A stretch of DNA of 64,000 nt from Candidatus Pacearchaeota archaeon (lineage in GTDB: Archaea > Nanobdellota > Nanobdellia > Pacearchaeales > GW2011-AR1), in contig JAFCEJ010000003.1 in the NCBI GenBank assembly GCA_017609175.1, positions 13,374 through 77,373 on the forward strand, written 5' to 3'. This document shows positions 4,843 through 40,143 of this stretch, in pieces. The first letter of the stretch is position 1. Every line of letters begins with the position of its first letter. Under the pieces are notes generated by a model. The model did not search any database, was not told where the DNA came from, and saw nothing but the letters and a program-made list of their open reading frames with translations. The translations under genes and the position numbers were made by a program.

Positions 4843-4868
4843 TTTATTTTATGTATTTTTTATTTAAA

Positions 4869-5648: not shown

Positions 5649-5654
5649 TTTTAT

Positions 5655-6017: not shown

Positions 6018-6083
6018 TACAGATTTTGATTTATAAACTTTTCTATTTGTTACTTTTGTAAAGTGGGAACATAATGAAAAGAT

Positions 6084-6992: not shown

Positions 6993-7046
6993 CCCACATT
7001 AAATAGAAAAAATGGTTTATAAAAGTTAGTCAAAAATTTATAAAAA

Positions 7047-17822: not shown

Positions 17823-17823
17823 T

Positions 17824-18984
17824 TTAAAATCCCAAAATCTTTTTAGTTGCATCGAGCAGTCTGTTTTCAAAAATAACTGCCTTTTCATCTTCCTGTTTTT
17901 CAAGACTGAGAACATTCATTAATTGCGGGATTAATTCATTAAAATTAGATGGGTTTTCGTTTGAATAGTTTTCAATCACCTCACTTTCAATATTTTCTGT
18001 ATCTTTTACTTCTATTTCCAATTCAACTTCTTTTGTTTTCAAATCATGAGTGTTTTTGAGCATAAAATAAGCTTTTTTTTGTTTTAGTATTTCTTCTATT
18101 TGAATAAATTTTATATCAGAATGTTTTCCGTTTTCCAACTCTCCTTTTAGTCTCAATAAAACTATTTTATCTTCAACATCTCTTTTCTTTATCTCTCCTA
18201 TAATTTTTTCTGTAGCTGTTATAGCGTTGGTTATCTCTATTGTTATTACCTCTACATCTTTTAGCTTAAGCTCAATTTTTTTTAAGGGAGTTTGTGATTC
18301 AGTATCTACAATATAAAAAGTTCCAAATCTTAAATCTTCAAGTTCTTGAAAATTATTTGGGAAAATTGGTCCAGGATAAACAAAGTTTTCATATTGAAAA
18401 TCTATATGCAAATGTCCTAGAGCATAATAATCTGCTTTAGGAAGTTTGTCTGCTTCAATAGCATCGATAGGCAAATTTCCTTTTGCTTTGTCAAGAGTTG
18501 TATGAAACATGAAAATTTTGAACATTCCGGGGGCATCATTTAATTTTATTTTTCTCAAATCATTTATTTCTAAACCAGATTTTTTTCCAGGATAACCATA
18601 AATTGCAACTCCCTTATATAATGTTGGATTAAGAATTATATTTTCTTCTGTTTGTTCCCAATTCTCTACATTTTTACAAAAACCCGCTTTTTCTAAAACA
18701 TCTAAAAATGTTTTTCCTGAAACCGAATAATCATGCGAACCTGCGATTATAAAACATGGGATATTTGAATCTTTTAGTTTTTTAAATTCTGCAAAAGCTT
18801 CTTTGAGAATTTCAATTGGCGGATAAGCGGAATCAAATAAATCGCCGGCAATTAAAACAAATTCTACTTTTTCAGAAATGCATGTTTCAATAGCTTTTTT
18901 AAAAGATTTTAGGTTTAAGTCCTGAAGCGGCTGCTGTTTCCATCCTCCTAAATGAACATCAGAAATGTGAGCAAACTTTGTCAT
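17824..18984 (-). CDS. mre11: Mre11 nuclease
   Basis: Phosphoesterase motifs HISDVHLG, GDLFD, GSHD, GHLH. ATG at 18984 is preceded by gaggt. The track start at 18999 is a TTG. Confidence 0.9.
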   Translation of the reverse strand: MTKFAHISDVHLGGWKQQPLQDLNLKSFKKAIETCISEKVEFVLIAGDLFDSAYPPIEILKEAFAEFKKLKDSNIPCFIIAGSHDYSVSGKTFLDVLEKAGFCKNVENWEQTEENIILNPTLYKGVAIYGYPGKKSGLEINDLRKIKLNDAPGMFKIFMFHTTLDKAKGNLPIDAIEADKLPKADYYALGHLHIDFQYENFVYPGPIFPNNFQELEDLRFGTFYIVDTESQTPLKKIELKLKDVEVITIEITNAITATEKIIGEIKKRDVEDKIVLLRLKGELENGKHSDIKFIQIEEILKQKKAYFMLKNTHDLKTKEVELEIEVKDTENIESEVIENYSNENPSNFNELIPQLMNVLSLEKQEDEKAVIFENRLLDATKKILGF

Positions 18985-19127
18985 TTTAATTAACCTCAAA
19001 ATTTCACACCCATCTTAATAAAAAGGTATAGAGTGAATTTAACAGTCTTGTAACTAAAAGTTGATAGGAGATATATAAAATTGATTATATTTTAGTATAT
19101 GATATTGGAATAAGTATTCAATAAATC

Positions 19128-19667
19128 TTATTTTAGGCTAAGCTCCCAGATAGACAACTCTTCATAAAATAATTTTTCATTGCCGAGAAATTTTTTATTA
19201 TATCCGAATTCTTCAAAATTTATCTTGGGGGTTAATGAACTGACAAGCAAGAAAATTTTTCCATTTTTATTAAGGTGATTTTTTGCTTGTTGCAGGAACC
19301 GGATTATAATTTCGTCGCCTTTTTTTCCTCCTGCTGTATCTGGTTTTTTGTCAAACTGGTGTTCAGGCAAATAAGGGGGATTAAAAACAATTATATCAAA
19401 AATACCCCCTATTTTTTCAAATAAATCTGACTGAATGCAGTGGAACCCCAACATATTACAATGACTAACTGCTTTTGGGTTTATATCGCATGAGAAAATA
19501 TTTTCTCGTTTTATTCCTAAATTTAGTGCAGTTTCAAGATGAATACCACTCCCTGCCCCGATTTCCAAAAAAGTTAAATCAGGATTTTCTTCTAATAATT
19601 GGGGCATTTCTCTTTTCAAAATCTCTGTTAAAAAATAAGAGTCTTCTGCGGGCTTGTAAATTTCCAT
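19128..19667 (-). CDS. HemK/Mtq2-like N5-glutamine (NPPY) methyltransferase
   Basis: SAM motif LEIGAGSG and FNPPY. 179 aa. Confidence 0.75.
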   Translation of the reverse strand: MEIYKPAEDSYFLTEILKREMPQLLEENPDLTFLEIGAGSGIHLETALNLGIKRENIFSCDINPKAVSHCNMLGFHCIQSDLFEKIGGIFDIIVFNPPYLPEHQFDKKPDTAGGKKGDEIIIRFLQQAKNHLNKNGKIFLLVSSLTPKINFEEFGYNKKFLGNEKLFYEELSIWELSLK

Positions 19668-19701
19668 AAAAAAAGAAGGTGTTTAAAATATATTAAATTA
19701 T

Positions 19702-20148
19702 CTAACCAGAAAAAATTGAGATTATCTGGTCTTTAAAAATAAATATGGCTATCAAAGTTCCTAATAAAAGAGATAATGCAATTATGAGGGTTATTATAAG
19801 AATTTTATTTCTTTTGTTTGTTTTTTCTTTGTCTGGCTTTTTTTCTGCATTTTCATGTTCAGAAGATTGTGGTTGCTGAATCGGTTGTTGTGTGGTTTGT
19901 TGTGATTGATTTATCTGATGAACTGGTTGTTGAACTTGTTGTGATTTTTGGATTTGTTGAGATTGCTCTTGTGAAGGAGTTTGTTGAATAGTTTGTGTAG
20001 GTTGTTCTGTTGATTGCAAAGCCCTTGCAGCTTCATCAACTTCTTCTCTAGGATAACCTGCATTATAAAGAGTTTGTATTGCAGATTCAAGGGAATTCCC
20101 CCTAGAAAGTGCAGACTTTAATGCCCCTAAAATATCTGCTCGCACCAT
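19702..20148 (-). CDS. tail-anchored Q-rich low-complexity protein
   Basis: N-terminal helical module (LYNAGYPREEVDEAARAL), Q/T/P-rich linker, C-terminal TM ILIITLIIALSLLLGTLIAIFIF. Confidence 0.5.
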   Translation of the reverse strand: MVRADILGALKSALSRGNSLESAIQTLYNAGYPREEVDEAARALQSTEQPTQTIQQTPSQEQSQQIQKSQQVQQPVHQINQSQQTTQQPIQQPQSSEHENAEKKPDKEKTNKRNKILIITLIIALSLLLGTLIAIFIFKDQIISIFSG

Positions 20149-20150
20149 TT

Positions 20151-21491
20151 TTATAACCTCATTTTTTGACCATCCTGCATTAGATGGATTTCTTTTCCTG
20201 GACGATAACCCATTTCCCGTGCAAGTTCAATCATAGGAGTTAATTGTTGAATTGTTCCGTGTGCAGGAATTATAATCTCTGGATTTATTATGGAAAGTAA
20301 ATCTCTTAAATCTTCCCTTCCTGCATGCCCTGAAACATGAACATCATCAAAAATTCTTACTCCAAACTTTTTTAATCTTTTGTCCATTTGCCCTTTTTGT
20401 GCGATATTGACCGGGGTTGGAATTGTCTTTGATGAAAAAACAATATTATCATTTCTTTTAAATTCAAAAGGAAGCTGCTTTCTTGATAATCTTTCCATAA
20501 CGCTTCCTGGTTCTCCCTGATGTCCGGTACAAACGACAAGAGATTTACTCCTTTGTTTGTTAATTTTTCTCAAAGTTGATTCTACTTGTTTTTTATAACT
20601 CACAAGAAAGATTTTGTTTTTGAACGGACACATATTTATATCAATTGCTGCTGAAACATATTTTTTTAAACTTCTTCCAATAAAATAAACATTTCTATCC
20701 AATTTTTTTGCAAAATCTACTATACTCTTTAATCGTGCAATATGAGATGAAAAAGTTGTAACAAAAATTGCTGATTTTTCATTTTGTGTTGTAAGCAAAA
20801 CTTCTTCTAATAGCGCTTTTGCCACTTTTTCGCTAGGTGTTTTTCTTTCTGAACCAGAATAAAGTGAATCTATAATTAAAGCCCTTACACCTTGTTTTGC
20901 AATTCTTTTTAAAGCATCGTAATTTGGTGGCAAGCCAAGAATTGGAGTATTGTCTAACTTGAAATCATTTGCATAGAGTATAACACCTTTTGGTGTATGA
21001 AGAGCAATCATAGAAGTTTGAAGAGTTGAATGGGTAATATTTATGAAATCTACCTTGTAAGATTTTTTTCCTTTGATGATATATGATGAATTTGGGCTAA
21101 CAGATTTTATTTGATTTGGGAGTTTTATCCTATCGTCTTCTAAAATTTTTTTTAGAACAGTTACTGTAAATGGTGTTCCCACAATTGGAGCATTATACCG
21201 ATGGGCGATATAAGGCAAAGCTCCTAAATGATCTAAGTGTGCATGTCCTATAAGAAGTGCTCTAACCTTACCTCTTAAATTTAATTTATCTAAAAGTTCA
21301 TCATTAGGAAGAGCGCCAATACTTCTCATTTTCTTTTCAGAATAAGTTTTTTGTTCAGTTTCTTGTTCTTGTTGTTCAACAACTGCAGGCAGATACAAAC
21401 CAGCGTCAAAGACAATTACATCGCTACCAAGATTCACAGCAGTCATATTTTTCCCGACTTCATTAAATCCACCAATAGTATATAACTCCAT
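20151..21491 (-). CDS. rnj: archaeal RNase J (beta-CASP)
   Basis: GHAHLDHLGALPY. About 446 aa. C-terminal HVSGH motif. Confidence 0.85.
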   Translation of the reverse strand: MELYTIGGFNEVGKNMTAVNLGSDVIVFDAGLYLPAVVEQQEQETEQKTYSEKKMRSIGALPNDELLDKLNLRGKVRALLIGHAHLDHLGALPYIAHRYNAPIVGTPFTVTVLKKILEDDRIKLPNQIKSVSPNSSYIIKGKKSYKVDFINITHSTLQTSMIALHTPKGVILYANDFKLDNTPILGLPPNYDALKRIAKQGVRALIIDSLYSGSERKTPSEKVAKALLEEVLLTTQNEKSAIFVTTFSSHIARLKSIVDFAKKLDRNVYFIGRSLKKYVSAAIDINMCPFKNKIFLVSYKKQVESTLRKINKQRSKSLVVCTGHQGEPGSVMERLSRKQLPFEFKRNDNIVFSSKTIPTPVNIAQKGQMDKRLKKFGVRIFDDVHVSGHAGREDLRDLLSIINPEIIIPAHGTIQQLTPMIELAREMGYRPGKEIHLMQDGQKMRL

Positions 21492-21612
21492 TTTAAGATA
21501 TTTAACCTCTTTTATAATGATGAATAATAATTGTAGTTTAAATATTTTTGGAGTTAATTAATTTAGGTTGTAAAGGTGATAAATATAAAAAGCCAAGTTA
21601 ATTCTTTAATTT

Positions 21613-21891
21613 ATGAAATCGCTTAAGCCATCAATGAGAGAAAAGAAGAGATATCTTTTAGTTAGAGGCAAAAATCCCAGGCAAAACATTGAAAAGGCAA
21701 TTTTGGAATTCATCGGAGTTTTGGGGATGTCAAAAACCTGTTTGAATTTTATAAAGATTAATTCAAATTCTGCAATCATATCTATAAATAGGGAAATGGT
21801 TGACCCTGTTCGGGCAAGTTTATGTGTTTATCCTGAAAAAATGACTGTTGAAAAAGTGAGCGGAACTCTAAAAGGATTAAAGAAGAAATAA
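21613..21891 (+). CDS. rnp2: RNase P protein component 2 (Pop5/Rpp14), short form
   Basis: LKPSMREKKRYLLV, VRASL, SGT motifs. Sits at the head of the exosome superoperon as in other archaea. Confidence 0.7.
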   Translation: MKSLKPSMREKKRYLLVRGKNPRQNIEKAILEFIGVLGMSKTCLNFIKINSNSAIISINREMVDPVRASLCVYPEKMTVEKVSGTLKGLKKK

Positions 21892-22066
21892 CCCAGATTA
21901 AAAATAAGTTAACCGAAACCCTTAAAAACTGCTAATTCTTGAAAATTTTGGAAGGGAGAAGAAGTAATTAAGTTTATTATAAACTTCTTACAAAATACGA
22001 TGGATAAAAAATTAAAAATTAAATTAAGGATTTTAAGCATCCAATTTAATAGAATTAAGGAATAAA

Positions 22067-22834
22067 ATGGATATGCCGATAGATATGCAACACCAAGTCA
22101 TGGGATATGACAGAGCTGCAACTATGTTTTCTCCTGAAGGACATTTGCTTCAGGTTGAATATGCAGAAAAAGCAGTAAGACTCGGAAGTGCAAGTATTGG
22201 AATGGTTTGTTCTGATGGAGTTTTTATTTTAGCAGATAGAAGAATTGATGACAAATTAATAACTATAAAATCTGTAAATAAAATTTATGAAATTGATGAG
22301 CACATTATTGTGAGCGTTGCAGGTATTGTTTCTGATGCAAGAATACTTGTTGAGAAAGCACAAGTATTATCTCAACAGCACAGAGTAACTTATGATTCTC
22401 CAATTGAGCCAGAATTAGTAATAAAAGAAATTGCAAATATAAAACAACAATTTACTCAATATGGTGGGGCAAGACCATTTGGAGTGTCAATAATGCTTGC
22501 GGGAATAAATGGCGATAAACCAGAACTTTACACGAGTGATGTAACTGGAAATTATTTTGGATATAATGCTAATGCAATTGGTGAAAACGACGATAAAATA
22601 AAAGAAAAATTAAGAGAACAATACAAGAAAGAATTAACAATTAAACAAGGAGTCAAAATTGCGTTAAAAATCTTTGAAGAAATCCGAGGTAAAAAATTTA
22701 ATATGGATAAATTTGAATTATGTTATATTGAAAATAAGAATAGTAAATTAAAGAGGTTAGAAGCTGGAGAAATCAAAAATTTCTTGACTTCAAAACCTAA
22801 GAATTCTCGGGGAGAGGGAGCTAACAAAGCATAA
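22067..22834 (+). CDS. psmA: proteasome alpha subunit
   Basis: YDRAATMFSPEGHLLQVEYA. Confidence 0.95.
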   Translation: MDMPIDMQHQVMGYDRAATMFSPEGHLLQVEYAEKAVRLGSASIGMVCSDGVFILADRRIDDKLITIKSVNKIYEIDEHIIVSVAGIVSDARILVEKAQVLSQQHRVTYDSPIEPELVIKEIANIKQQFTQYGGARPFGVSIMLAGINGDKPELYTSDVTGNYFGYNANAIGENDDKIKEKLREQYKKELTIKQGVKIALKIFEEIRGKKFNMDKFELCYIENKNSKLKRLEAGEIKNFLTSKPKNSRGEGANKA

Positions 22835-22835
22835 A

Positions 22836-23510
22836 ATGACACAAACAACTGCACGAATTAAAAAAGGTGGAAAACATTTTGAGATTTTGGTTGATTTAGA
22901 TAAAGCTTTAGCTTTCAAAAAAAATGGAGAACCAAATGACTTTTTAGAAATTGACATAATTTTTAGTGATGCAAAAAAAGGAGATAAAGCATCTAGTTCT
23001 GATTTGCAGGAAGTTTTTGGGACACAAGATGTTTATGAAATTGCTAAAAAAATTGTGAAGGAAGGCGAGGTTTTACTCACTCAAGAATATCGAGATGCAG
23101 AACAAGAAAAAAAGTTCAAACAAATTGTTGATTTTTTATCCAGAAATGCTATTGATCCTCAAACAAAAAATCCGCATACTCCTGAAAGAATCAAAAGTGC
23201 TCTTGAACAGGCGCATATCAATATAAAAAATGTTCCGATTGAAAAACAGATTAATGAAATAATTGAGAGCATTAGTTCTATTCTGCCCCTAAAAATTGAG
23301 ACAAAAAAAATTAAAATAACTGTTCCTGCAATACATACTGGAAAGGTTTATGGAATAATAAATGAATATAAAGAAAAAGAAAACTGGCTTGATAATGGAG
23401 ATTTAGAAGTTATTGTAAATGTTCCTTCAGGAATAATAATTGATTTTTATGATAAATTAAATTCAGTGACACATGGTTCTGCGATAACAGAAGAGGTCAA
23501 GGAAGAATGA
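22836..23510 (+). CDS. sdo1: SBDS/Sdo1 ribosome maturation protein
   Basis: ARIKKGGKHFEILVD N-terminal FYSH domain. Superoperon position. Confidence 0.85.
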   Translation: MTQTTARIKKGGKHFEILVDLDKALAFKKNGEPNDFLEIDIIFSDAKKGDKASSSDLQEVFGTQDVYEIAKKIVKEGEVLLTQEYRDAEQEKKFKQIVDFLSRNAIDPQTKNPHTPERIKSALEQAHINIKNVPIEKQINEIIESISSILPLKIETKKIKITVPAIHTGKVYGIINEYKEKENWLDNGDLEVIVNVPSGIIIDFYDKLNSVTHGSAITEEVKEE

Positions 23511-23659
23511 ATATAAACAAAATATTAGTACTTGCAGCATTAGAAGCAAGAGACAATATATTCGGTGATAAAATTATAAGAATAACGATGAGGGACAGTA
23601 ATAATCAAAATTGGATAAGAAAAAAAGTTCTTATCACCCTCATTATAGGGAAAGAATAA
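23507..23659 (+). CDS. small ORF (50 aa), hypothetical
   Basis: ATGA overlap with the SBDS stop. Hand translation: MNINKILVLAALEARDNIFGDKIIRITMRDSNNQNWIRKKVLITLIIGKE. Confidence 0.25.
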   Translation: MNINKILVLAALEARDNIFGDKIIRITMRDSNNQNWIRKKVLITLIIGKE

Positions 23660-23708
23660 TTAATAATCAATCAATATATAATTTAAAAAGGAAAAACATG
23701 ACACGAAG

Positions 23709-24416
23709 ATGAGTGAAAATCAAAGAAAAATCGTAATTCCAGGGGAAGTTATTGTAAGTGGAGAGGATTATCTACCTGGTGAAGGAACAGAAAAAAGAGG
23801 CGAGAATATTGTTGCAATAAGATATGGTTTGGCCGAAGAGCAAAATAAATTAATAAAAGTCATTCCATTGTCAGGAGTTTATGAACCAAGAAGAGGAAAT
23901 GTTGTTATAGGACGAGTTGAAAATTTGACATTTAATGGATGGATTATTGATATTGGTTCTGCTGTAAATGGGTTTTTACCGATTTTAGAAGTTCCAAAAT
24001 ATATTAATAAAAATGATTTGGCAGAAATTATGGATATTGGAGATATGGTTATTGCAAAAGTCTGGAGTGTTAAAAGAAAAGGAATTGACTTGAGTTTGAA
24101 ATCAAGAGGATTAGGAAAGGTAGAAGAAGGAATAATTATTAAAATAAATTCGAAAAGAGTTCCAAGAGTAATTGGAAAAGAAGGGAGTATGGTTTCAATG
24201 ATAAAAGAAAAAACAAATTGCAATATCACCGTCGGGCAAAATGGACTCATATGGATAAAAGGAGATAGGATTGAAGATGAGCTTTTAGCAAAAAAAGCAA
24301 TTTTATTTGTTGCTGAAAAATCATATGTTAATGGTTTAACTGATAAGGTAAAAGAATGGTTTGAAGAAATTTCATTAGAAGATGGAAAAACAGTAAAAAA
24401 AGGAGGGAAAAAATAA
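23709..24416 (+). CDS. rrp4: exosome RNA-binding subunit Rrp4 (S1 + KH)
   Basis: VIPGE, S1 domain GRVENLTFNGWIIDIG, KH domain VIGKEGSM. Confidence 0.9.
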   Translation: MSENQRKIVIPGEVIVSGEDYLPGEGTEKRGENIVAIRYGLAEEQNKLIKVIPLSGVYEPRRGNVVIGRVENLTFNGWIIDIGSAVNGFLPILEVPKYINKNDLAEIMDIGDMVIAKVWSVKRKGIDLSLKSRGLGKVEEGIIIKINSKRVPRVIGKEGSMVSMIKEKTNCNITVGQNGLIWIKGDRIEDELLAKKAILFVAEKSYVNGLTDKVKEWFEEISLEDGKTVKKGGKK

Positions 24417-24417
24417 G

Positions 24418-25128
24418 ATGGTAAAAGAATTCAAAAGACCGGATGGAAGAAAAGTTGATGAAATTCGTGAGATGAAGGCGAAAGTTGGAGTTGTGCCAAA
24501 TGCCGACGGAAGTGCTATGTTTCAATTTGGAGAAACAATCGCAATTGCTGCTGTTTATGGACCAAAAGAAATGCACCCACAACACGAACAAGACCCTGAA
24601 AAGGGTGTTTTAAGATGCACTTATAATATGATGAGTTTTTCTGTTGCAGATAGAATCCGTCCAGGACCAAGCAGGAGAAGTCAGGAAATCAGCAAAATTA
24701 CTGAATGGGCACTAAGTCCTGTTGTAATGCTTGAAAATTTTCCAAATACTGTTGTTGATGTTCATATTTATATTTTACAAGCAAATGCCTCTACACGGTG
24801 TGCAGGAATAAATGCTGCAGCAATGGCATTAGCGCATGCAGGAGTGCCAATGAAAGATTTAGTAACAAGTGTTTCAATCGGGAAATTAAACAAAACATTA
24901 GTTGTTGATTTAAATAAGGATGAGGAAGATTGGGAAGAGGGCGAGGGTGCAACAGATATTCCAATTACAATGACCTCAACAGGAGAAAAAATAACGCATA
25001 TTCAATTAGATGGAAAAATTTCAGTAAAACAATTAAAAGAAAGTATTGAACTTGCGCGAAAAGCGTCAAAGAAAATTTATGAGGTTCAAAAATCAGCTTT
25101 GAAAAATTCAATGGAGGAAGAACAATGA
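24418..25128 (+). CDS. rrp41: exosome RNase PH subunit Rrp41
   Basis: RPDGRKVDEIREMK, ADGSA. Confidence 0.9.
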   Translation: MVKEFKRPDGRKVDEIREMKAKVGVVPNADGSAMFQFGETIAIAAVYGPKEMHPQHEQDPEKGVLRCTYNMMSFSVADRIRPGPSRRSQEISKITEWALSPVVMLENFPNTVVDVHIYILQANASTRCAGINAAAMALAHAGVPMKDLVTSVSIGKLNKTLVVDLNKDEEDWEEGEGATDIPITMTSTGEKITHIQLDGKISVKQLKESIELARKASKKIYEVQKSALKNSMEEEQ

Positions 25129-25922
25129 GAACAAATCGTTTAACAAAACAAAGAATTAAAGAATTTTTAAAAGAAGGAAAAAGATTTGATGGAAGAGAAC
25201 TTGATGAATTTAGAGAGATTTATATTGAAACAGGAGTTTCAAAAAAAGCAGAGGGTTCTGCGAGAGTTAGATTAGGAAAAACAGAAGTTATTGTCGGTGT
25301 AAAAATGAATATTGGGGAACCATATCCTGATTCTCCTGATGAAGGAAATATGATGGTCACAGCAGAATTAACTCCTATGAGTTCTAATAGATTTGAATCA
25401 GGACCACCAAGAATTGAAGCAATTGAATTAGCAAGAGTAATTGATAGAGGGATTAGAGAAAGCAAAGTTATAGATTTTAAAAAGTTGTGCATTAAAAAAG
25501 GAGAAAAAGTATGGACAATTTTCATTGATATTTATTCAATAAATGACGACGGTAATTTACTTGATGCTGCAGGATTTGGAGCATTAGCAGCATTAAAAAA
25601 TGCTAAAATTCCAAAGTATGATGATAAAGAAGAAAAAGTATTATATGGGGAATGGACAAATAAAAACATTCCCTTGAATTTTATCCCGCTTTCATGTACT
25701 ATCCACAAAATTGATAATCAGTTTATTGTTGACCCAAATAAAGAGGAAGAAGATGCGAGTGAAGCAAGGATAACAATTGCAATTTCAGGGGACGGAACAA
25801 TTCATGCCATGCAAAAAGGAAATTCAAAAGAATTAAAAATAGAAGAATTTAATGAAATATTAGATTTAGCTGAGAAAAATTATAAAAAATTGTTTCCAAA
25901 AATAGAGAAGTTTTTAAAATAA
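25125..25922 (+). CDS. rrp42: exosome RNase PH subunit Rrp42
   Basis: RFDGRELDEFREI, AEGSARV. ATGA overlap with rrp41. Confidence 0.9.
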   Translation: MRTNRLTKQRIKEFLKEGKRFDGRELDEFREIYIETGVSKKAEGSARVRLGKTEVIVGVKMNIGEPYPDSPDEGNMMVTAELTPMSSNRFESGPPRIEAIELARVIDRGIRESKVIDFKKLCIKKGEKVWTIFIDIYSINDDGNLLDAAGFGALAALKNAKIPKYDDKEEKVLYGEWTNKNIPLNFIPLSCTIHKIDNQFIVDPNKEEEDASEARITIAISGDGTIHAMQKGNSKELKIEEFNEILDLAEKNYKKLFPKIEKFLK

Positions 25923-25925
25923 AAA

Positions 25926-26300
25926 ATGAATAAAGAAAATTTTTCAAAATATGAAATTGCAAGGATTTTGGGAGCAAGGGCTTTGCAAATTGCAATGAAT
26001 GCTCCGCTTCTAATAAAAATCACTCCAGAAGACTTAGAGAAAATAAAATATGATGCTTTAAAAATTGCAGAAATTGAATTTGAATCAGGAATTTTACCGA
26101 TTTCTGTTAAAAGACCTTTCCCAGAAAAAAAAGAAAGTGAATTGAAAAAAGCAAAAGAAAAAAAATTAAGTGACAAAGAAAAAGAAGAGATAGAAAAAGA
26201 AGAAGAGGAAGAAATTGTAAAAGAAGGTGAGATTATGGAACTCGCTAGACCAGAAGATGAAATTGAAGAAGAGGGCGTAGAAGAAGGAATTGAAGAGTGA
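25926..26300 (+). CDS. rpoK: RNA polymerase subunit K (Rpb6) with acidic C-terminal extension
   Basis: SKYEIARILGARALQIAMNAP core. The last ~60 aa are K/E-rich. Confidence 0.85.
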   Translation: MNKENFSKYEIARILGARALQIAMNAPLLIKITPEDLEKIKYDALKIAEIEFESGILPISVKRPFPEKKESELKKAKEKKLSDKEKEEIEKEEEEEIVKEGEIMELARPEDEIEEEGVEEGIEE

Positions 26301-26335
26301 GTTAATTATATAAAATAATATTTCTTTAATTGTTT

Positions 26336-27502
26336 ATGAGAATAAAACAAGTATCAGCTCGTGCGATTTTGGATTCCCGGAAAGAAAAAACAATTTTAGT
26401 TTCTATAAAAACAGATATCGGCAGTTTTTCTGCATCGTCTCCAACAGGAAAATCAACCGGAAAATATGAAGCAAAATCTTACAAGCAAAATCTTGAAGGA
26501 GATATTAAAAAAATAAGAGAATTTTCAGAATATTTTTCAGGAGATGAATTTACTTGTTTTGATTGTTTGGAGAAAATAGAAGAAATTGTAGAAAAAAATG
26601 TTGGGGCAAATACTCTTTTTGCTTTGGAAAGTGCGATTTTGAAAGCAATCGCCAAAGAACAGGAAAAAGAAGTTTGGCAATTGATAAATCCTAATGCACA
26701 AAAAATGCCTCGTCTCGTCGGGAATTGTATTGGTGGAGGAAAGCATTCACTAATAGAAAAAAAACCAGATTTTCAAGAATTTCTTTTAATTCCAAATTTA
26801 AAATCAGTTAAACAATCCTTTGAATTAAATAAAAAAGCAAAGGCAGAAGCAGAAGAAATTTTAAAAAAATTTGACAATGATTTTAAAGCAAAGAAAAATG
26901 ATGAAAATGCGTGGATGACGTCATTAAATGAAAAGATTGTTTTAGATATTTTATATAGGTTAAAACAAAAATTTAAAATAGCAATCGGGGTCGATGTTGC
27001 AGCATCTTCATTTTATAAAAGAAAAAAATATCATTATTTAAATCCGAAATTAGACAGAGATAGTGAAGAACAATTTGGTTATATTTCTAATTTAATTAAG
27101 AATTTTGGATTACTATATATTGAAGATGCATTCGGTGAAGAGGATTTTGAAAGTTTTGCTAAATTATTGAAGAGATTTCCAGACAGATTAATTGTTGGTG
27201 ATGATTTAACTGTTACAAACCCGAAAAGATTAAAAAAAGCTATTGAAAAAAAGGCGATTAATGGGATTATCGTAAAGCCAAATCAAATTGGTTCGTTGTT
27301 AGAGGTCAAAAAAGTTTGTGAACTGGCGAGAAAAAATAAAATAAAAATTGTTTTCTCTCATCGGAGTGGTGAGACAGAAGAAAACATTTTGGCGGATTTG
27401 GCTTTTGGTTTTGAGGCTGATTTTTTCAAATGCGGAATTGATGGAAAAGAAAGAGAAATTAAGTTAAAAAGACTAATTGAAATTGAAAAAAGGTTAATGT
27501 AG
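26336..27502 (+). CDS. eno: enolase (divergent, short)
   Basis: ARAILDSRKEKT, IVKPNQIGS, SHRSGETEE. The track start at 26330 is a TTG. Confidence 0.8.
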   Translation: MRIKQVSARAILDSRKEKTILVSIKTDIGSFSASSPTGKSTGKYEAKSYKQNLEGDIKKIREFSEYFSGDEFTCFDCLEKIEEIVEKNVGANTLFALESAILKAIAKEQEKEVWQLINPNAQKMPRLVGNCIGGGKHSLIEKKPDFQEFLLIPNLKSVKQSFELNKKAKAEAEEILKKFDNDFKAKKNDENAWMTSLNEKIVLDILYRLKQKFKIAIGVDVAASSFYKRKKYHYLNPKLDRDSEEQFGYISNLIKNFGLLYIEDAFGEEDFESFAKLLKRFPDRLIVGDDLTVTNPKRLKKAIEKKAINGIIVKPNQIGSLLEVKKVCELARKNKIKIVFSHRSGETEENILADLAFGFEADFFKCGIDGKEREIKLKRLIEIEKRLM

Positions 27503-27563
27503 GAAAATTTCGTTTATTTTTCGTAAGAGGAAGTTTTAAAAATCAATTTTTCTGTGAATTGCT

Positions 27564-28442
27564 ATGATTAAAGACAAAGAAAAAACAAAAGAAGAAAAAT
27601 TAATTGAAAAAGAAGAAGAGAAAACCGGTGTTTCAGAAGATATCGCAAAAAAAGAAGCAGAGTTGGATGTAGAGCAAGAAGTTCCAGAAGACAAATTAAA
27701 AGGAAAAGACCTGGAAGAAGCAGCTGAAAAAGAATCTACAGAAAAAACTATTGAAGAAAAAAAGAAAGCACTATTAGAAAAAGCTGCAAAATTAAAAGAG
27801 AAAATTGATGTTGCAAAAACAGAGGAATTAAAAGAAAAAGTTAAGGGGAAAAAGAAAGGAGAACCATTGCTTCCTTTAGATGATTATATTAAAGCAGGTA
27901 TCTATCTTGGAACAAAAGTTGTAACACCAGATATGAGGCCTTTTGTTTATAGGCGGAGGGCAGACGGACTTGCTATTTTCAACACAGACATTATTGATGA
28001 AAAGTTAAAAGAAGGTATAGAATTTTTAACAAAATTTGATGCAAAAGATATAATCGTTGTTTGCAAAAGGCAATCTGGATGGAAAGCTGTTAATAAATTT
28101 TCAGAATTAACAGGTATTAGGGCTTTTACAAAAAAATATCCTGCAGGAATTTTGACGAATATAACATTACCGGATTTTTTTGAAAATGAATTGACAATCA
28201 TTTGTGATTCTTGGCTTGACAAAAATGCTTTAGCAGATACCCTAAAAGTTCATAAAAAAGTTTTGATGATTTGTGATACAAATAATTTTGCAAAAGGAGC
28301 TGACCAAATTATTATTGGAAATAATAAAAGTGCAAAAAGTTTGGGATTAATTTTTTATCTTTTAACAAAAGAATATTGCAAGGCAAAAGGAATTGAAGCA
28401 GACATCCCGGACTTAGAGTGGTGGATGAGTGAAGCAGATTAA
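27564..28442 (+). CDS. rps2: ribosomal protein uS2 with ~93-aa K/E-rich N-terminal extension
   Basis: LLPLDDYIKAGIYLGTKVVTPDMRPFVYRRRADGLAIFN core. rpoK-eno-rps2 order is conserved in archaea. Confidence 0.9.
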   Translation: MIKDKEKTKEEKLIEKEEEKTGVSEDIAKKEAELDVEQEVPEDKLKGKDLEEAAEKESTEKTIEEKKKALLEKAAKLKEKIDVAKTEELKEKVKGKKKGEPLLPLDDYIKAGIYLGTKVVTPDMRPFVYRRRADGLAIFNTDIIDEKLKEGIEFLTKFDAKDIIVVCKRQSGWKAVNKFSELTGIRAFTKKYPAGILTNITLPDFFENELTIICDSWLDKNALADTLKVHKKVLMICDTNNFAKGADQIIIGNNKSAKSLGLIFYLLTKEYCKAKGIEADIPDLEWWMSEAD

Positions 28443-28885
28443 ACCTTAAAAAACAACCAGCTATTTTTTGCATAATCTGTCTTGATTAAAACATAATCGC
28501 CCTTGAGTTTTTTGCCGTGTAATTTAAATTCAATTTTTTTAGAAGTTTTTTCAATTAATTCGTAAGTTCCCTTATCCCAAATTTTTACATCTCCTGCCCC
28601 ATAATTTCCTTCTGGAATTATTCCTTGAAAATTTGCATAATTTAGTGGGTGGTCTTCAACCTGAATTGCAAGTCGTTTTATTCCTTTTATCGTTGGTGGT
28701 TGTTTTGGAATAGCCCAGGACTTTAAAACACCATTAATTTCTAATCTTAAATCCCAATGAAGATGCGAAGCATGATGTTCATGAATTAAATAGATTAATT
28801 TTTTTGATTTTGATTTAGAACTCTTTGGTTTTGGTTCTGGAGTTTTTGAGAAGTTCCTCTTTTTTTTATATTGGGTTATTGTCAT
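28439..28885 (-). CDS. stand-alone LigD-type 3'-phosphoesterase domain protein
   Basis: HHASHLHWDLRLE, GDYVLIK. 148 aa. Confidence 0.75.
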   Translation of the reverse strand: MTITQYKKKRNFSKTPEPKPKSSKSKSKKLIYLIHEHHASHLHWDLRLEINGVLKSWAIPKQPPTIKGIKRLAIQVEDHPLNYANFQGIIPEGNYGAGDVKIWDKGTYELIEKTSKKIEFKLHGKKLKGDYVLIKTDYAKNSWLFFKV

Positions 28886-28953
28886 TATTCTATAAAAGAA
28901 TTAGAATATAAAAATTGCTCGTTAATATTGATTATAAAATATTTAGCAAAAAA

Positions 28954-28961
28954 TTTATAAA
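28954..28961 (+). promoter_or_regulatory. candidate TATA box (tttataaa, A-rich BRE upstream) of the rRNA operon
   Basis: Lies about 27 nt upstream of the first nucleotide of the 16S processing helix (28988). Confidence 0.4.
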
Positions 28962-29144
28962 CTCAGTATCTTAATCATCTTTAACTAAGATGAGTGCCTT
29001 AACAATTTATTTTAGTAGTAAGGTATGAGGTATGTAAAAGCAATCATCTAGTTGTAATTCTCAGCCAATAGTAGGAGTAGTGTGAAGTGTTCTTGAAACT
29101 TACATCAAGAATGCGGAATTTAATAGTGAGTTAATTAAATTTTA

Positions 29145-30420
29145 AATCCAGTTGATCCTGCTGGCGGCTGCGGCTCTCTGATTTGTCTTAGACATGCAAG
29201 TTTTTACTCTTAGAAATAAGAGTAAAGCGAACTGCTCAGTAACACGTAGTTAATCTACCCTAAGGTCAGGGATAAGCTCGGGAAACTGAGTGTAACACCT
29301 GATAAAAAATATACTCTGGAATGGTATATATTTGAAACTCGAGCCTTAGGATGAGACTGCGGCTGATTAGGTTGTTGGCGGGGTAAATGCCCACCAAGCC
29401 GATGATCAGTAAGGGCTCTTAGCGGAGAGGCCCTGAGAGGGAATCTGAGACACTATTCCCAGCCCTACGGGGTGCAGCAGTTAAGAATCTTCTGCAATGC
29501 GCGAAAGCGTGACAGAGTGAATCAGAGTGCTTTTCTATCGAAAAGCTTTTGTATGGTGTAAAAAGCCATACGAATAAGGACTGGGTAAGACTAGTGCCAG
29601 CCGCCGCGGTAATACTAGCGGTCCAAGTCGCAGCCATCTTTATTGGGTCTAAAACATCCGTAGCTTGCTTGATAAGTTTTTTGTGAAATCCCATATCTCA
29701 AGTATGGGGCGAGCAAAAAGTACTATCAAGCTAGAGACTGGAAGACGTAAGGAGTACAATCAAGGTAGCGGTAAAATGTTTTAATCTTGGTTGGACTAAC
29801 AATAGCGAAGGCACCTTACGAGGACAGTTCTGACAGTAAGGGATGAAGGCCAGGGGCGCAAAACGGATTAGATACCCGTGTAGTCCTGGCAGTAAACACT
29901 GCACACTAAACATCAGTACCTCCTCGAGAGGTATTGGTGCTGAAGGGAAGCCGAAGAGTGTGCTACCTGGGAAGTATAGTCGCAAGGCCGAAACTTAAAG
30001 GAATTGGCGGGGAGACACTACAACGGGTGACGCGTGCGGTTCAATTAGATTCTACACTCGCCTTGGTAACAAGGATGAAAGTGTGGGCTACGTTAGGTGA
30101 GTACAGTCCAAATCCCCTGGGCGACACGCGCGCGTCAATGCTGGATACAAAGAGATGCGACTCTGAAAAGAGAAGCTAATCCCATAAAGTCCAGCCCAGT
30201 TCAGATTGAGGTTTGCAACCCAACCTCATGACGATGGAATCCGTAGTAATCGTTCGTTAGCAGCGAACGGTGAATATGTCCCTGTCTCTTGCACACACTG
30301 CCCGTCAAACCAACCGAGTTATGTTAGGGTGAAACTCTTTTGAGGAGAACTTTAGCATGACAAGGTAGGTTAAGTCGTCACAAGGTATCTGTAGGGGAAC
30401 CTGCAGATGGATCACCTCCT
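29145..30420 (+). rRNA. rrs: 16S rRNA, only ~1276 nt (internal ~190-nt segment absent)
   Basis: 5' aatccagttgatcctgc; gtgccagccgccgcggtaatac (29594); ggattagatacccg (29866); aaacttaaaggaattggcgggg (29991); cttgcacacactgcccgtca (30288); 3' ggatcacctcct. Confidence 0.9.
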
Positions 30421-30556: not shown

Positions 30557-30627
30557 GGGCCTGTAGTCCAACGGTAGAATACCTCCCTTGCACGGAGGAG
30601 ATCCGCGTTCGACTCGCGGCAGGTCCA
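30557..30627 (+). tRNA. tRNA-Ala(UGC) in 16S-23S spacer
   Basis: Hand-folded cloverleaf: acceptor GGGCCTG/CAGGTCC with G3:U70, anticodon loop CTTGCAC, T arm CCGCG-TTCGACT-CGCGG. No encoded CCA. Confidence 0.85.
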
Positions 30628-30963: not shown

Positions 30964-31128
30964 ATAAATATACGACAAATTAAAATCGTAATAAATAATT
31001 CATTCAATATTCATACTCAATTAGAGAACGGTTCAATAATCAAGTTATTGGATCGTAATGAGAAATTCATTTTCAATGAAATAAGCAGTGGAAAACAATG
31101 TCAGAAGTGACCTTATTTCTTAAAATTC

Positions 31129-33921
<2,793 letters not shown>

Positions 33922-34019
33922 GAATTTTAAGAAATAAGGACTTCTGGTAAAGAACCTGTGTTCTCAGTTTTCCACTGCTTGTTTTTTGATTATAATTCTT
34001 ATCATTTTAGATTATTACG

Positions 34020-34551: not shown

Positions 34552-34920
34552 GTAAGTCGGGTAGTTAACTTCGGAATTCAGGCATTAAATTGTCAAGAAA
34601 TCGTTAGATGATTTCTGAATTCTGAGGAAGGTCCGCCCACCGCTTTAAGGTTGCTTTCCGAAAGGAAAGATGCTGTGAGGCATGGCTCTGTCACAGAAAC
34701 GACACAGCTTGCTTAGAGTAATGAACTTTGCAGGGAACTGTGAAAAGCAAGATTTGATGAAACGGGCATCCCAACTGGTGCAAGGCTTTAAGCCGCATAG
34801 TTGAATGTTAACACGTTCCGTTCCGTAAGGAACCAAGGTTCCTTGACGTTCAACCTCCTTTAAGGATGGTTCAGAACGGATGGCGGAGGAACGACAGAAG
34901 GCGGCCTATTCCCGACTTAC
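34552..34920 (+). ncRNA. rnpB: RNase P RNA
   Basis: P1 gtaagtcggg / cccgacttac closes the molecule. CR-I-like gaggaaggtccgccc, atgaaacgggcatccc, CR-V-like acgacagaaggcggcctat. Locally GC-rich. Confidence 0.8.
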
Positions 34921-34986: not shown

Positions 34987-35098
34987 TGGGACAGCGGGGA
35001 GTCGAACCCCGGACACCTAGATATCTGAGCATTTATTTGGTTAATGAAATTATAATTTAACTCTTCAGTCTAGTGCTCTCCCGCTGAGCTACTGCCCC
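34987..35098 (-). tRNA. tRNA-Phe(GAA) with 40-nt intron at canonical 37/38 position
   Basis: Hand fold: GGGGCAG-TA-GCTC-AGCGGGA-GAGC-A-CTAGA-CTGAAG[intron 35062..35023]A-TCTAG-GTGTC-CGGGG-TTCGACT-CCCCG-CTGTCCC-A. ttttataaa lies about 30 nt upstream. Confidence 0.85.
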
Positions 35099-35995: not shown

Positions 35996-37363
35996 ATGCC
36001 ATTAAAAATTTATAATACTATGTCTAGAAAGAAAGAGGTCTTTAAACCTGTAAAAGAAGGGCAAGCAGGGATGTATGTTTGCGGACCGACGATTTATGAC
36101 TATGTTCATATTGGAAATTTGAGGGCTTATGTTTTTGCTGATATTTTAAGAAGAATTCTGAAAATAAATGGGTATAAGGTAAAAGAAGTTATGAATTTGA
36201 CAGATGTTGATGATAAGACAATTAAAAATAGCCAGAAAGCTGGAATGAAGTTAAAAGAATTTACAAAAAAATATGAAAAAGGTTTTTTAGAAAATATAAA
36301 AGATATGAATATTGAAAAACCAGAAGTTATGCCAAAGGCAACAGAACATATTAAAGAAATGGTTGCACTTATAAAAAAACTTTTGAAAAAAGGATTCGCT
36401 TATAAAACTGACGACGGAATTTATTATTCTATTAGAAAATTTAAAGATTATGGAAAATTGTCAAAAATAAAGAAGGAAAATTTAAAAGCTGGTGCTAGTG
36501 AGCGAGTTTTGAAAGATGAATATGATAAAGAACATGTAAATGATTTTGCTTTATGGAAATTTTGGGATGAAAACGATGGTGATGTTTTTTGGGAAACTGA
36601 ATTGGGAAAGGGTCGTCCTGGATGGCATATTGAATGTTCTGCGATGTCAACGAAATATTTAGGGAAACAGTTTGATATTCATACAGGAGGTGTTGATTTA
36701 ATTTTTCCACATCATGAAAATGAAATTGCGCAAAGTGAAGCTGGTTTTGAAAAAAAACCGTGGGTGAAATACTGGCTACACAACGAATGGGTTTTGGTTG
36801 ATGGCAAAAAAATGAGTAAAAGTTTGGGAAATTATTACAAATTAAAAGATATAACAGACAGGGGATATTCGCCGATGGATTTGAGGTATTTTTATTTATC
36901 AGGACATTATAGAAAACCTTTAAATTTCACTTTCACGAATTTGGAAGCTGCAAAGAACACTTATCAAAGATTAAAAAACATAATTTCTGAGATAAAAAAA
37001 AGTAAAGAAAAGAAAAATAAAAAAAATATTAATGCTGCTTACAAACAATTTTTAGAAATTTTAAATGATGATTTAAATGTTCCAAAAGCCTTATCGTTTA
37101 TGTGGGAAATTTTAAGAGAAAACAAATTGAATGATGCTGAGAAGTATGAACTTGTTTTAAAATTTGACAAAGTTTTTGGACTAAAATTAGATAAAGAAGA
37201 AAAAATTAAGATTCCTGCAGAAGTTAAAAAATTCGTTGCTGAAAGAGAAAAAGCGAGAAAGGAAAAAAATTGGAAACTTGCTGACGAATTAAGAGAAAAA
37301 ATTAAAAATGCGGGATATTATGTTGATGATACGGGGGAAGGATGGAAGATTAGGAAATTATAG
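35996..37363 (+). CDS. cysS: cysteinyl-tRNA synthetase
   Basis: HIGN and KMSKS motifs, WHIECS. Confidence 0.95.
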   Translation: MPLKIYNTMSRKKEVFKPVKEGQAGMYVCGPTIYDYVHIGNLRAYVFADILRRILKINGYKVKEVMNLTDVDDKTIKNSQKAGMKLKEFTKKYEKGFLENIKDMNIEKPEVMPKATEHIKEMVALIKKLLKKGFAYKTDDGIYYSIRKFKDYGKLSKIKKENLKAGASERVLKDEYDKEHVNDFALWKFWDENDGDVFWETELGKGRPGWHIECSAMSTKYLGKQFDIHTGGVDLIFPHHENEIAQSEAGFEKKPWVKYWLHNEWVLVDGKKMSKSLGNYYKLKDITDRGYSPMDLRYFYLSGHYRKPLNFTFTNLEAAKNTYQRLKNIISEIKKSKEKKNKKNINAAYKQFLEILNDDLNVPKALSFMWEILRENKLNDAEKYELVLKFDKVFGLKLDKEEKIKIPAEVKKFVAEREKARKEKNWKLADELREKIKNAGYYVDDTGEGWKIRKL

Positions 37364-37364
37364 A

Positions 37365-37538
37365 ATGTTAGAACTTAAATTTACAATAGAAGAGATGAAG
37401 AAATTAATTGAACAAGGTGATGCTGAATTTTTAAACAAGGACGAAAATCTTGCATTAGTATATCAAAACCTTTATAGAAAAGAAAATGGATTTTATTATA
37501 ATGTTTTACAAAGAATAAGAATGAGTAAAGGAAAATAA
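37365..37538 (+). CDS. small hypothetical protein (57 aa)
   Basis: ATG directly after the cysS stop. The track start at 37308 overlaps cysS. Confidence 0.3.
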   Translation: MLELKFTIEEMKKLIEQGDAEFLNKDENLALVYQNLYRKENGFYYNVLQRIRMSKGK

Positions 37539-37550
37539 AAGAGGTTGGAA

Positions 37551-38801
37551 ATGAAAAAATTAGATTTTGTAGATTTGAAGTATAAGCCAAAAGAAGATTT
37601 AGTTTGTTTGTTTAAAGTTTTTCCTAGGGGGAAATCTGTAGCAAAGGCGGCAAATATTGTAGCACTTGAATCAAGTATTGGAACGTGGACAAAAATTCCT
37701 AAGCAGGATTACGTTGAAAAGTTAAAAGCAAAAGTTTTTTCTATTAAAGGCAATAAAGTTAAAATCGCTTACCCAAAAGAATTGTTTGAGTCAGATAATG
37801 TTCCGAACATTTTATCTTCTATTGCAGGAAATATTTTTGGGATGAAGATTGTGAAGGCTTTAAGGTTGGAAGATGTTAGTTTTCCGAAAACGATTTTGAA
37901 AAGTTTTAAGGGACCAAAATATGGAATTGAAGGAATTAGAAAAATGATGAAAGTAAAATCACGGCCACTCATTGGAACTATTATAAAACCGAAGCTTGGA
38001 CTAAAAACAGAAGACCATGCAGAATCTGCTTATGAATCTTGGAAGGGTGGATGTGATATTGTAAAGGATGATGAGAATTTGGCCTCGCAAAAATTTAATC
38101 AATTTGAAAAACGGCTTGTAAAAACCTTGGAAGTAGCAGATTTGGCACAGAGCGAAACAGGTGAGAAAAAAGCTTATCTTGTAAATGTTACTGCAGAAAC
38201 TAAAAAAATGATTAAGAGAGCAGAATTAGTTGAAAGACAAGGCGGTAAATATGTTATGTTAGATATTTTAACAGCAGGTTGGGGTGCTTTACAAACTTTA
38301 AGAGAAGCAAATTTCAAAATGGCAATTCATGCACATAGGGCAATGCATGCTGCTTTTGACAGAAATCCAAATCATGGAATAAGTATGATGGTAATTGCAG
38401 ATTTTGCGCGATTAATTGGGGTTGATCAAATACATATTGGAACAGGAATTGGAAAACTTGAAGGAAATATAAGGGAGATTAAAGAGATTAAAGAAGATAT
38501 TGAACAAAAAAAAGTCAAAGAGACAAAAAATAGATTAGAGCAGAAATGGTTTGACATTAAACCAGTTTTAGGAGTTTCTTCAGGAGGTTTGCACCCAAGA
38601 CACGTTCCTTTTTTAATTAAACATCTTGGAAAGGATTTAGTAATTCAGGCAGGGGGAGGAATTCATGGACATCCTTATGGAAGCCGAGCCGGTGCAATTG
38701 CAATGCGTCAAGCAGTTGATGCTACAATGAAAAAAATTTCTTTAGAAAAATATGCGCAGACACATGTTGAGTTGGAAAGGGCTTTAGAAAAGTGGAGATA
38801 G
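37551..38801 (+). CDS. rbcL: RuBisCO large subunit, form III-like
   Basis: GTIIKPKLGL, VKDDENL (carbamylated-Lys box), HAHRAMHAA, GGGIHGHP. ATG at 37551 follows gaggt. Confidence 0.85.
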   Translation: MKKLDFVDLKYKPKEDLVCLFKVFPRGKSVAKAANIVALESSIGTWTKIPKQDYVEKLKAKVFSIKGNKVKIAYPKELFESDNVPNILSSIAGNIFGMKIVKALRLEDVSFPKTILKSFKGPKYGIEGIRKMMKVKSRPLIGTIIKPKLGLKTEDHAESAYESWKGGCDIVKDDENLASQKFNQFEKRLVKTLEVADLAQSETGEKKAYLVNVTAETKKMIKRAELVERQGGKYVMLDILTAGWGALQTLREANFKMAIHAHRAMHAAFDRNPNHGISMMVIADFARLIGVDQIHIGTGIGKLEGNIREIKEIKEDIEQKKVKETKNRLEQKWFDIKPVLGVSSGGLHPRHVPFLIKHLGKDLVIQAGGGIHGHPYGSRAGAIAMRQAVDATMKKISLEKYAQTHVELERALEKWR

Positions 38802-38806
38802 CTAAA

Positions 38807-39262
38807 ATGAAAAAGAGATATCGTAAGTCTGTTTTTGTTGTAGTATATTGCAAAACAAAAAAAGGAATTGAGTATCTTATTTTAAAGCGAAAGCTTCATT
38901 GGAGGGGGTGGGAATTCCCAAAAGGGGGTGTAGAAGGATTAAAAGAAAAAATATTTACAAAAAAAGCTATTAAAAGAGAGGTCAAAGAAGAAACAGGATT
39001 AGAAGCAATACAAATAAAAAATATGCATGTTTCTGGAAAATATAACTATAAAAAAATGCTCAAAGACCGGCCAGGAATCATTGGGCAAAAATATAGACTT
39101 TATGCAGCAGAAGTAAAAAAAGGAAAAGTAAATTTAAATAAAAATCATGATGCAGAGCATTCTGATTATAAATGGGTGTCATTTGATAAAGCAATTAAAA
39201 AATTAACATGGCCTAATCAGAGAAAGTGTTTGAAAATTGTGAATAGTTGGTTAAAGAAATAA
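38807..39262 (+). CDS. NUDIX hydrolase
   Basis: Nudix box GWEFPKGGVEGLKEKIFTKKAIKREVKEETGL. Confidence 0.8.
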   Translation: MKKRYRKSVFVVVYCKTKKGIEYLILKRKLHWRGWEFPKGGVEGLKEKIFTKKAIKREVKEETGLEAIQIKNMHVSGKYNYKKMLKDRPGIIGQKYRLYAAEVKKGKVNLNKNHDAEHSDYKWVSFDKAIKKLTWPNQRKCLKIVNSWLKK

Positions 39263-39294
39263 AATCTTAAAAATAAACATTTCTTCTAAAAGCA

Positions 39295-39663
39295 ATGAGA
39301 GTCAATTTAAAGAGGTATTTTCTTTATCTTTGTAGGTGGCAATTAAGCACGCCAATTCTTGCAATTGCTTTAATCTGGCTTTCCTCTTTAAACAAATGGG
39401 TTGCTACAATAATTGCAAATTTCATCGGGGGATTAATATTTTTTTGGGTAGATAGATTTGTTTTTACGTCAAAATCCTTAGCTGCACAATGGGAGGTGAG
39501 AGATAATATAAAGTGTTCTGATTGTGGAAAAATAGCAAGAGGGTATAGATTAGTAAAAACACCAAATTACGATAAGACCAGTGATAAAGCTCCAAAATTC
39601 AGGTGCGAGGAATGCTCTCAAAAAAAGGCAGAAGAATTAAGAAAAAGAGGGATAATAGTTTAA
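39295..39663 (+). CDS. membrane protein with C-terminal Zn ribbon
   Basis: Two TM helices followed by CSDCGK...CEECS. Confidence 0.4.
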   Translation: MRVNLKRYFLYLCRWQLSTPILAIALIWLSSLNKWVATIIANFIGGLIFFWVDRFVFTSKSLAAQWEVRDNIKCSDCGKIARGYRLVKTPNYDKTSDKAPKFRCEECSQKKAEELRKRGIIV

Positions 39664-39774
39664 TCTTGAAAAAGTTTTTAATATATCACAACATTCTTTA
39701 ATAACCTTAAAGATATTTTATCAGGGTTAAATCAAAAGGAGGTAAAAAATCAGAGAAAAAATATCAAAAATAAA

Positions 39775-40143
39775 ATGAAATTCAGAGAATTTGAAACAAG
39801 TTCAGGTAAAAAAGTTTTGGCCGGCAAAAATGCAAAAAATAATGAGGAGCTTGTTGCACAAGTTGGAAAAAACGAAGATGTTTTTCATACTGCAAAGCCG
39901 GGCAGTCCTTTTGTAAACATTAAAGCTTCAAGGACAAATAAGAAAGATAGAAAAGAAGCTGCAATTTTTTGTGCGCGTTATAGTCAAGATTGGAGAGACA
40001 ATAAATCAGATGTTGAAGTGCATTGGTTTAAAGGAAAGGACATTTACAAAAGAAAAGGAATGAAACTCGGAACTTTTGGTGTTAGAAATTTCAAAATCAT
40101 TAGAGTTAAGAAAGAAGAAATTGAAAGATTCAAAAAAATTTAA
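39775..40143 (+). CDS. NFACT-R/DUF814-domain protein
   Basis: VFHTAKPGSPFVNIK core. 122 aa. Confidence 0.55.
   Translation: MKFREFETSSGKKVLAGKNAKNNEELVAQVGKNEDVFHTAKPGSPFVNIKASRTNKKDRKEAAIFCARYSQDWRDNKSDVEVHWFKGKDIYKRKGMKLGTFGVRNFKIIRVKKEEIERFKKI

Follow-up and report, generated by a model that had tools for sequence, protein, structure and literature searches.

Small-subunit (SSU) ribosomal RNAs of naturally reduced size are known from the microsporidia, in which they measure ~1.2-1.3 kb, and from the mitochondria of animals and kinetoplastids (the 12S/9S rRNAs). In these molecules peripheral helices have been lost whole at many sites, h34 is kept, and the reductions are clade-wide. A second group is formed by the split rRNA genes, which include the organellar rRNAs encoded in pieces and the bacterial IVS-processed rRNAs; here a piece is absent from its normal position, and the known fragmentation sites lie in variable loops. 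A third phenomenon is of technical origin. Local assembly errors, in which the consensus has no read support, are a documented, routine defect of the scaffolds of metagenome-assembled genomes (MAGs), and 13 of them were counted in one 1.13-Mb scaffold (Chen et al. 2020, Genome Res 30:315; PMC7111523).

The 64-kb stretch of DNA analysed in this study (the window) contains one archaeal rRNA operon on the + strand, and no second one. As assembled, its archaeal SSU (16S) rRNA gene extends from 29145 to 30420 (+) and matches the Rfam model SSU_rRNA_archaea (RF01959) with an Infernal score of 1116.6 bits, far above the gathering score of 50. The match is end to end, as it covers model positions 1-1478, yet the gene is only 1276 nt long, in agreement with the ~1276 nt given in the initial annotation, and a complete head domain with h31-h40 paired is not found in it. 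In a close-up of the covariance-model alignment, a check that had been proposed when the gap was first noticed, there is a single head-domain gap, in which model positions ~940-1157 (218 positions) are represented by 32 nt. Global alignment with the full-length SSU gene of a related archaeon (locus L011 of GCA_030649905.1; 1448 nt) gave 90.8% identity and exactly one gap of at least 3 nt, which is 168 nt long and follows SSU position 913, corresponding to window position 30057. The junction at 30057/30058 (+) reads ...GATTCTACAC / TCGCCTTGG... and is clean, without Ns, and the boundaries in the multiple alignment (...GATTCTACAC / TCGCCTTGGTAACAAGG...) agree with it. Measured against the closest relatives, the missing block thus amounts to 168 nt, and against the Rfam model to ~186 nt. 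The loss of head-domain sequence reported in the initial annotation is therefore real as far as the assembled sequence is concerned, but its size, put there at ~190 nt, is to be corrected to 168 nt in a lineage whose head is already compact. If the short gene were true, it would specify an unprecedented small-subunit head without part of the decoding site, and the claim therefore had to be checked. Our analysis indicates that the gap is most probably a local assembly or contig-joining error in the rRNA operon and not a biological feature.

The rest of the operon has a conventional appearance. The spacer tRNA-Ala(UGC) at 30557-30627 (+) was found intact by Rfam and by a second tRNA search, and Rfam places the LSU (23S) rRNA gene, 2813 nt in length, at 31119-33931 (+) and an RNase P RNA at 34560-34912 (+). 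As the LSU genes of two relatives measure 2819 and 2855 nt (the latter minus its intron), the length of the 23S gene is normal for the lineage, and only the 16S gene of the window is anomalous; the earlier impression that the 23S gene, the spacer tRNA and the processing helices are intact was correct. The surrounding genome has ~30% G+C, and the window encodes archaeal exosome subunits, Rpo6, enolase, uS2, a LigD phosphoesterase-domain protein, CysRS, a RuBisCO large-subunit homologue, and a NUDIX protein. The nearest named homologues of the CysRS (64-76% identity) carry the labels Nanoarchaeota, Candidatus Nanoarchaeia or Pacearchaeota archaeon, which identifies the organism as a DPANN archaeon. 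Like a canonical DPANN archaeal SSU gene (RF01959), the gene of the window agrees with those of its relatives in its other helices (91% SSU identity), as do its tRNA-Ala, its 23S gene and its synteny, and with the 168-nt block restored it would be ~1444 nt long, similar to the relatives' genes.

Transfer of the consensus structure of the intact L011 gene to the window through the multiple alignment allowed us to assign the helices around the gap. Unlike a canonical archaeal SSU gene, the gene as assembled is without the whole of h33, h35-h37 and h39, and it has one strand each of four further helices cut away, namely the 3' strand of h31 and the 5' strands of h32, h34 and h38. The structure lines of the covariance model place the 5' strand and loop of h31 at 30043-30057 (+), its 3' strand being lost at the junction. 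The hairpin that follows, TCGCCTTGG TAA CAAGGATG (30058-30077, +), is a retained h40, as the same sequence aligns as h40 in L011; the covariance model had misplaced it as the 5' strand of h32, with 3 non-canonical pairs. Downstream of it lie orphan strands: the 3' strand of h38 (30083-30086, +), assigned from the L011 structure via the alignment and now without its partner, the 3' strand of h34 (30091-30109, +), the helix that is part of the decoding site, which is conserved in sequence and whose partner is also deleted, and the 3' strand of h32, CCCCTGG (30114-30120, +), which is complementary to CCAGGAG in the 37-nt tail of the independent contig described below. In the initial annotation the missing block was taken to hold the 5' strand of h34 and h35-h40, with the 3' strand of h34 retained. 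This is right for both strands of h34, for h35-h37 and for h39, but h40 and the 3' strand of h38 are kept, and the listing omitted the 3' strand of h31, the 5' strand of h32 and all of h33, while of h38 it is the 5' strand that is gone.

The sequences flanking the gap are well conserved. Over the first 75 nt past the junction, which include the orphan strands, identity to the relatives is 92-96%, and the gene is 90.6% identical to that of L011 ahead of the junction (5') and 91.5% identical past it (3'). Conserved orphan strands without extra substitutions fit neither the pattern of an evolved reduction nor that of a decayed pseudogene. The latter, which had been one of the explanations offered at the outset, finds no support, as the two sides of the junction are equally conserved and the 168-nt gap is the only one of its kind in the gene.

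The anatomy of the gap also bears on the reading that would be of greatest biological interest, i.e., that a natural population exists in which the 16S gene of the sole rRNA operon is without h33-h39 and the 5' strand of h34. Such a gene would either specify an evolved, functional SSU rRNA with a drastically reduced head, or be a fragmented gene whose 168-nt piece is supplied in trans. That the operon is otherwise intact (processing stems, tRNA-Ala, 23S, RNase P) would be in keeping with a functional gene, DPANN archaea are known for reduced genomes and for unusual rRNA and tRNA gene arrangements, and the overall length of 1276 nt is similar to that of microsporidian SSU rRNA. However, whereas natural reductions trim whole helices, the gap in the window is a single contiguous block that halves helices and leaves conserved orphan strands behind; in an evolved reduction a helix would go as a unit and a loop would cap its stump, but h31, h32, h34 and h38 have each lost one strand only. 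In addition, uS2, which binds h35-h37, is still encoded intact beside the operon.

Comparison with related genomes speaks against the same reading. Using the CysRS homologues as an entry point, we reached loci whose gene order matches that of the window, with the conserved order LigD_N, rRNA operon, RNase P, CysRS, RuBisCO, NUDIX and NFACT. They comprise L011, with an SSU gene of 1448 nt and the block at 2720-2887; L012 (JGI 3300037067), with an SSU gene of 1444 nt and the block at 1231-1398; L013 (ENA ERZ27247363), whose SSU gene of 1444 nt is identical to that of L012 and which is an independent assembly of the same organism as L012; and L010 (ENA ERZ27249449), a contig that starts within the SSU gene, covers model positions 802-1478 and has the block at 118-285. 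A further locus, L014, is without an rRNA operon beside CysRS. In all four loci with the gene (L010, L011, L012 and L013), the distance from GATTCYACAC to TTGCCTTGG is exactly 168 nt. The gap is therefore shared by none of the relatives, including three related species (L010, L011 and L012/L013) at ~91% SSU identity, and a reduction common to the group is not observed.

The missing segment was also sought elsewhere. With 3 mismatches allowed, the conserved box GCATGGCYGYCGTCAGCTCGTG is absent across the whole 64-kb window, and the sole 1-mismatch match of GCAACGAGCG in the window sits in the 23S gene, a number at chance expectation; the earlier statement that both conserved boxes are missing from the window thus holds. 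A search of the window with all Rfam families revealed no second SSU fragment at E<=1, and blastn comparison of the relatives' 168-nt block with the window gave chance matches only (E>=0.35). Therefore, a missing segment encoded elsewhere was not found within the 64-kb window. In this respect the gene differs from split rRNA genes, which it resembles in that a piece is absent from its normal position; its breakpoints do not lie in variable loops either. We also scanned 185,579 species genomes (GTDB) and the JGI metagenome contig collection; the pattern used could match an SSU gene only if its h31 anchor and ACACGCG lay 58-88 nt apart. The scan gave three matches, none of which (0/3) is an rRNA, and hence no other SSU gene with this compact spacing was found in these collections; as the window's own contig lies outside them, this negative result is no test of other assemblies of the organism.

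Further evidence comes from independent assemblies. An exact-protein look-up with uS2 (27564-28442) led to two JGI contigs from other samples. The first, L004, is the end of the 43-kb JGI contig Ga0366835_1001166 (sample 3300033150), and it is 100% identical to window positions 17564-30057, i.e., over 12,494 nt with 0 mismatches and 0 gaps. Exactly at the junction the two assemblies disagree: the final 37 nt of L004 past 30057, which run to the physical end of the contig (CGTGAACCTCACCAGGAGCGACAGCAGAATGAAGGTC), have no match to the window, and blastn of this tail against the window returned only chance-level matches. The tail is the canonical continuation of the gene, as it completes h31 with the 3' strand, supplies the 5' strand of h32 and enters h33, and it is identical to the start of the relatives' block at 37/37 positions in L010, 36/37 in L011 and 36/37 in L012. 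The strands of h32 read ...GGAG on the 5' side (L004 tail) and CCCC... on the 3' side (window), and ...GGAC and GCCC..., respectively, in L011; a G-C pair formed between the L004 tail and the window is thus C-G in L011, which means that both sides of h32 have changed together.

As L004 reads into the missing block and the relatives all have it, the gap is most probably an assembly error rather than a sign of a reduced ribosome. Of the explanations listed in the initial annotation, assembly collapse is the one that the data favor, since L004 diverges into canonical sequence exactly at 30057/30058, whereas a reduced or fragmented SSU rRNA finds no support: helices are cut through, the relatives do not share the gap, and in the same strain the 5' part of the gene runs without a break into the first 37 nt of the block. 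Contiguity of this kind is also unlike a split gene, and with all the evidence taken together, we regard a functional reduced head or a piece supplied in trans as scarcely credible.

The opposite assignment of the error has to be weighed as well, namely that the window is correct and that the 37-nt tail is artificial, the contig having been extended chimerically with 16S reads from a co-occurring relative. At contig ends, assemblers sometimes attach sequence of a closely related population. The tail does sit at a contig end in a conserved gene, a classic site for chimeras, and it is 37/37 identical to the relative L010. The sequence just upstream tells a different story. Within its last 127 nt, L004 differs from L010 at -71 and -5 (counted from the junction), with G and T where L010 has A and C, respectively, and it differs from L011 at -33, -22, -5 and +17, while L012 shares the T at -5 with L004 but differs inside the tail. 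As the end of L004 differs from L010, L011 and L012, the tail stems from this organism or a very close strain and not from the sampled relatives. Moreover, even a foreign tail would leave the orphan conserved strands and the uniform 168-nt block of the relatives as evidence against a functional short gene. A chimeric tail on L004 is thus very unlikely.

Other records of the organism suggest that the operon is a difficult site for assemblers. Not only does L004 stop 37 nt past the junction, but the second JGI contig, L005 (sample 3300033141; 99.76% identical), ends at window position 29689, inside the 16S gene, and the assembly is therefore ambiguous at this site. The proteins S2 and LigD_N, encoded upstream of the operon, are listed on one contig of 20-50 kb and one of 2-5 kb. 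Proteins encoded downstream (39295-39663, NFACT-R at 39775-40143, and 62433-62885) are listed on a contig of 50-200 kb on which S2 and LigD_N are not, which makes a start within the operon or shortly past it probable for this contig. Proteins from the two flanks of the operon have only one listed contig in common, which belongs to the 0.2-1 Mb class. It is probably the 216-kb contig reported for CysRS and S2, and the probable source of the window, as the longest contig on record for both proteins, in NCBI and JGI sources, has 216,429 nt; the exact CysRS sequence is recorded from 2 contigs. A cluster look-up returned no further assemblies of this species in the collection, and a literature search on the JGI sample identifiers found nothing. 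It appears, then, that the other assemblies break at the rRNA operon and that the sole assembly that bridges it carries the gap.

The anomaly shares several features with the local assembly errors described for MAGs (PMC7111523): it lies in a conserved rRNA operon in which independent assemblies terminate, the consensus at its junction is contradicted by another assembly, and its surroundings are normal. It is unlike them in that those errors are defined by the absence of supporting reads, whereas here we infer the lack of read support, and a clean loss of 168 nt without Ns is less common than the usual gap or chimera. Most probably, the gap arose in computation rather than by a deletion in the DNA. 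The organism would then be a low-GC DPANN archaeon (Nanoarchaeota/Pacearchaeota-like) whose 16S rRNA gene is ordinary and of full length (~1444 nt), and the assembler, or a scaffolding or joining step, would have bridged the operon where other assemblies break, dropping the stretch from the h31 loop to h40. Scaffolders are known to close small estimated gaps, and on this basis the bridging may have occurred by a spurious short-overlap merge of two contig ends.

Two observations do not sit easily with an assembly error. First, a k-mer-graph assembler requires a shared k-mer to collapse 168 nt, and inspection of the relatives' sequences at both breakpoints for direct repeats or microhomology showed no long repeat that could explain a collapse. 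The only similarity between the breakpoints in the relatives is a weak CAAT..AGATT, which does not predict the observed junction. Second, only one independent contig (L004) crosses the junction, and it does so by 37 nt only and at a contig end. The first of these observations, together with the clean junction without Ns and the intact state of the rest of the gene, which would fit a very young event, is what could be said for a real and very recent 168-nt deletion. Such an allele, perhaps microhomology-mediated, would exist in the population or a sub-population beside the full-length allele, and it would be non-functional, either as a variant without a future or as one member of a duplicated pair of operons. 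However, the same strain, with flanks identical over 12.5 kb, carries the full-length continuation in L004, and a second operon is absent from the 64-kb window. DPANN genomes normally carry a single rRNA operon, so that the loss of a head segment that includes one strand of h34 would be lethal. We therefore consider a recent deletion unlikely, and an error in the assembly remains our preferred explanation of the gap.

It follows that the 16S sequence of the window is unfit, as it is, for phylogeny, for primer or probe design and for database entries, and that it will fail length and quality filters. The contig deserves a flag for a local mis-join at 30057/30058, and no conclusion on ribosome reduction in DPANN archaea is to be drawn from this gene.

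Several other features of the lineage came to light in the course of this analysis. In the SSU genes of the relatives, the supposedly universal boxes of the head domain are divergent, with GCATGGCCGACGTCAGCCTGTGC and GGTAACAGGCAAGACCC in the blocks of L010 (118-285), L011 (2720-2887) and L012 (1231-1398), and the region from h33 to h39 is short (168 nt). Even with intact genes of this lineage, mismatches would be expected for standard primers and probes that target the 1050-1100 region. In GCA_030649905.1, a group I intron (RF00028, 77 bits; L011 6068-6312) interrupts the 23S gene (4203-7302); it is absent from the 23S gene of the window.

The RNase P RNA of the window (34560-34912, +) has 353 nt in comparison with the 288-nt archaeal model, with insertions of ~74 unaligned nt (34816-34889) ahead of the 3' strand of P1 and of 41 nt near the 5' end. 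As the RNase P RNAs of the relatives range from 315 to 377 nt, the size of this RNA is variable in the lineage. A tRNA gene at 34987-35098 (-), detected by Rfam with 55 bits and missed by ARAGORN, spans 112 nt against a 71-nt model and thus probably contains an intron; at the syntenic position in L010 (5211-5325) there is a tRNA match of 115 nt.

Upstream of the operon, the uS2 gene (27564-28442, +) encodes a protein of 292 aa in which the Pfam Ribosomal_S2 match is weak (39.7 bits) and begins at residue 109. This suggests that the protein has an N-terminal extension of ~100 residues or a divergent N-terminus. Directly upstream of the 16S gene is a stand-alone gene for a LigD 3'-phosphoesterase domain (28439-28885, -; 148 aa), which shares 4 nt with the end of the uS2 gene and is found at the same place in L011. 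The rRNA operon and the RNase P RNA are directly followed by a cluster of genes for CysRS, the RuBisCO large-subunit homologue, a NUDIX hydrolase and NFACT-R (35996-40143, +). The cluster is kept in all relatives examined (L010, L011, L012 and L014), among them L014, in which the rRNA operon is located elsewhere.
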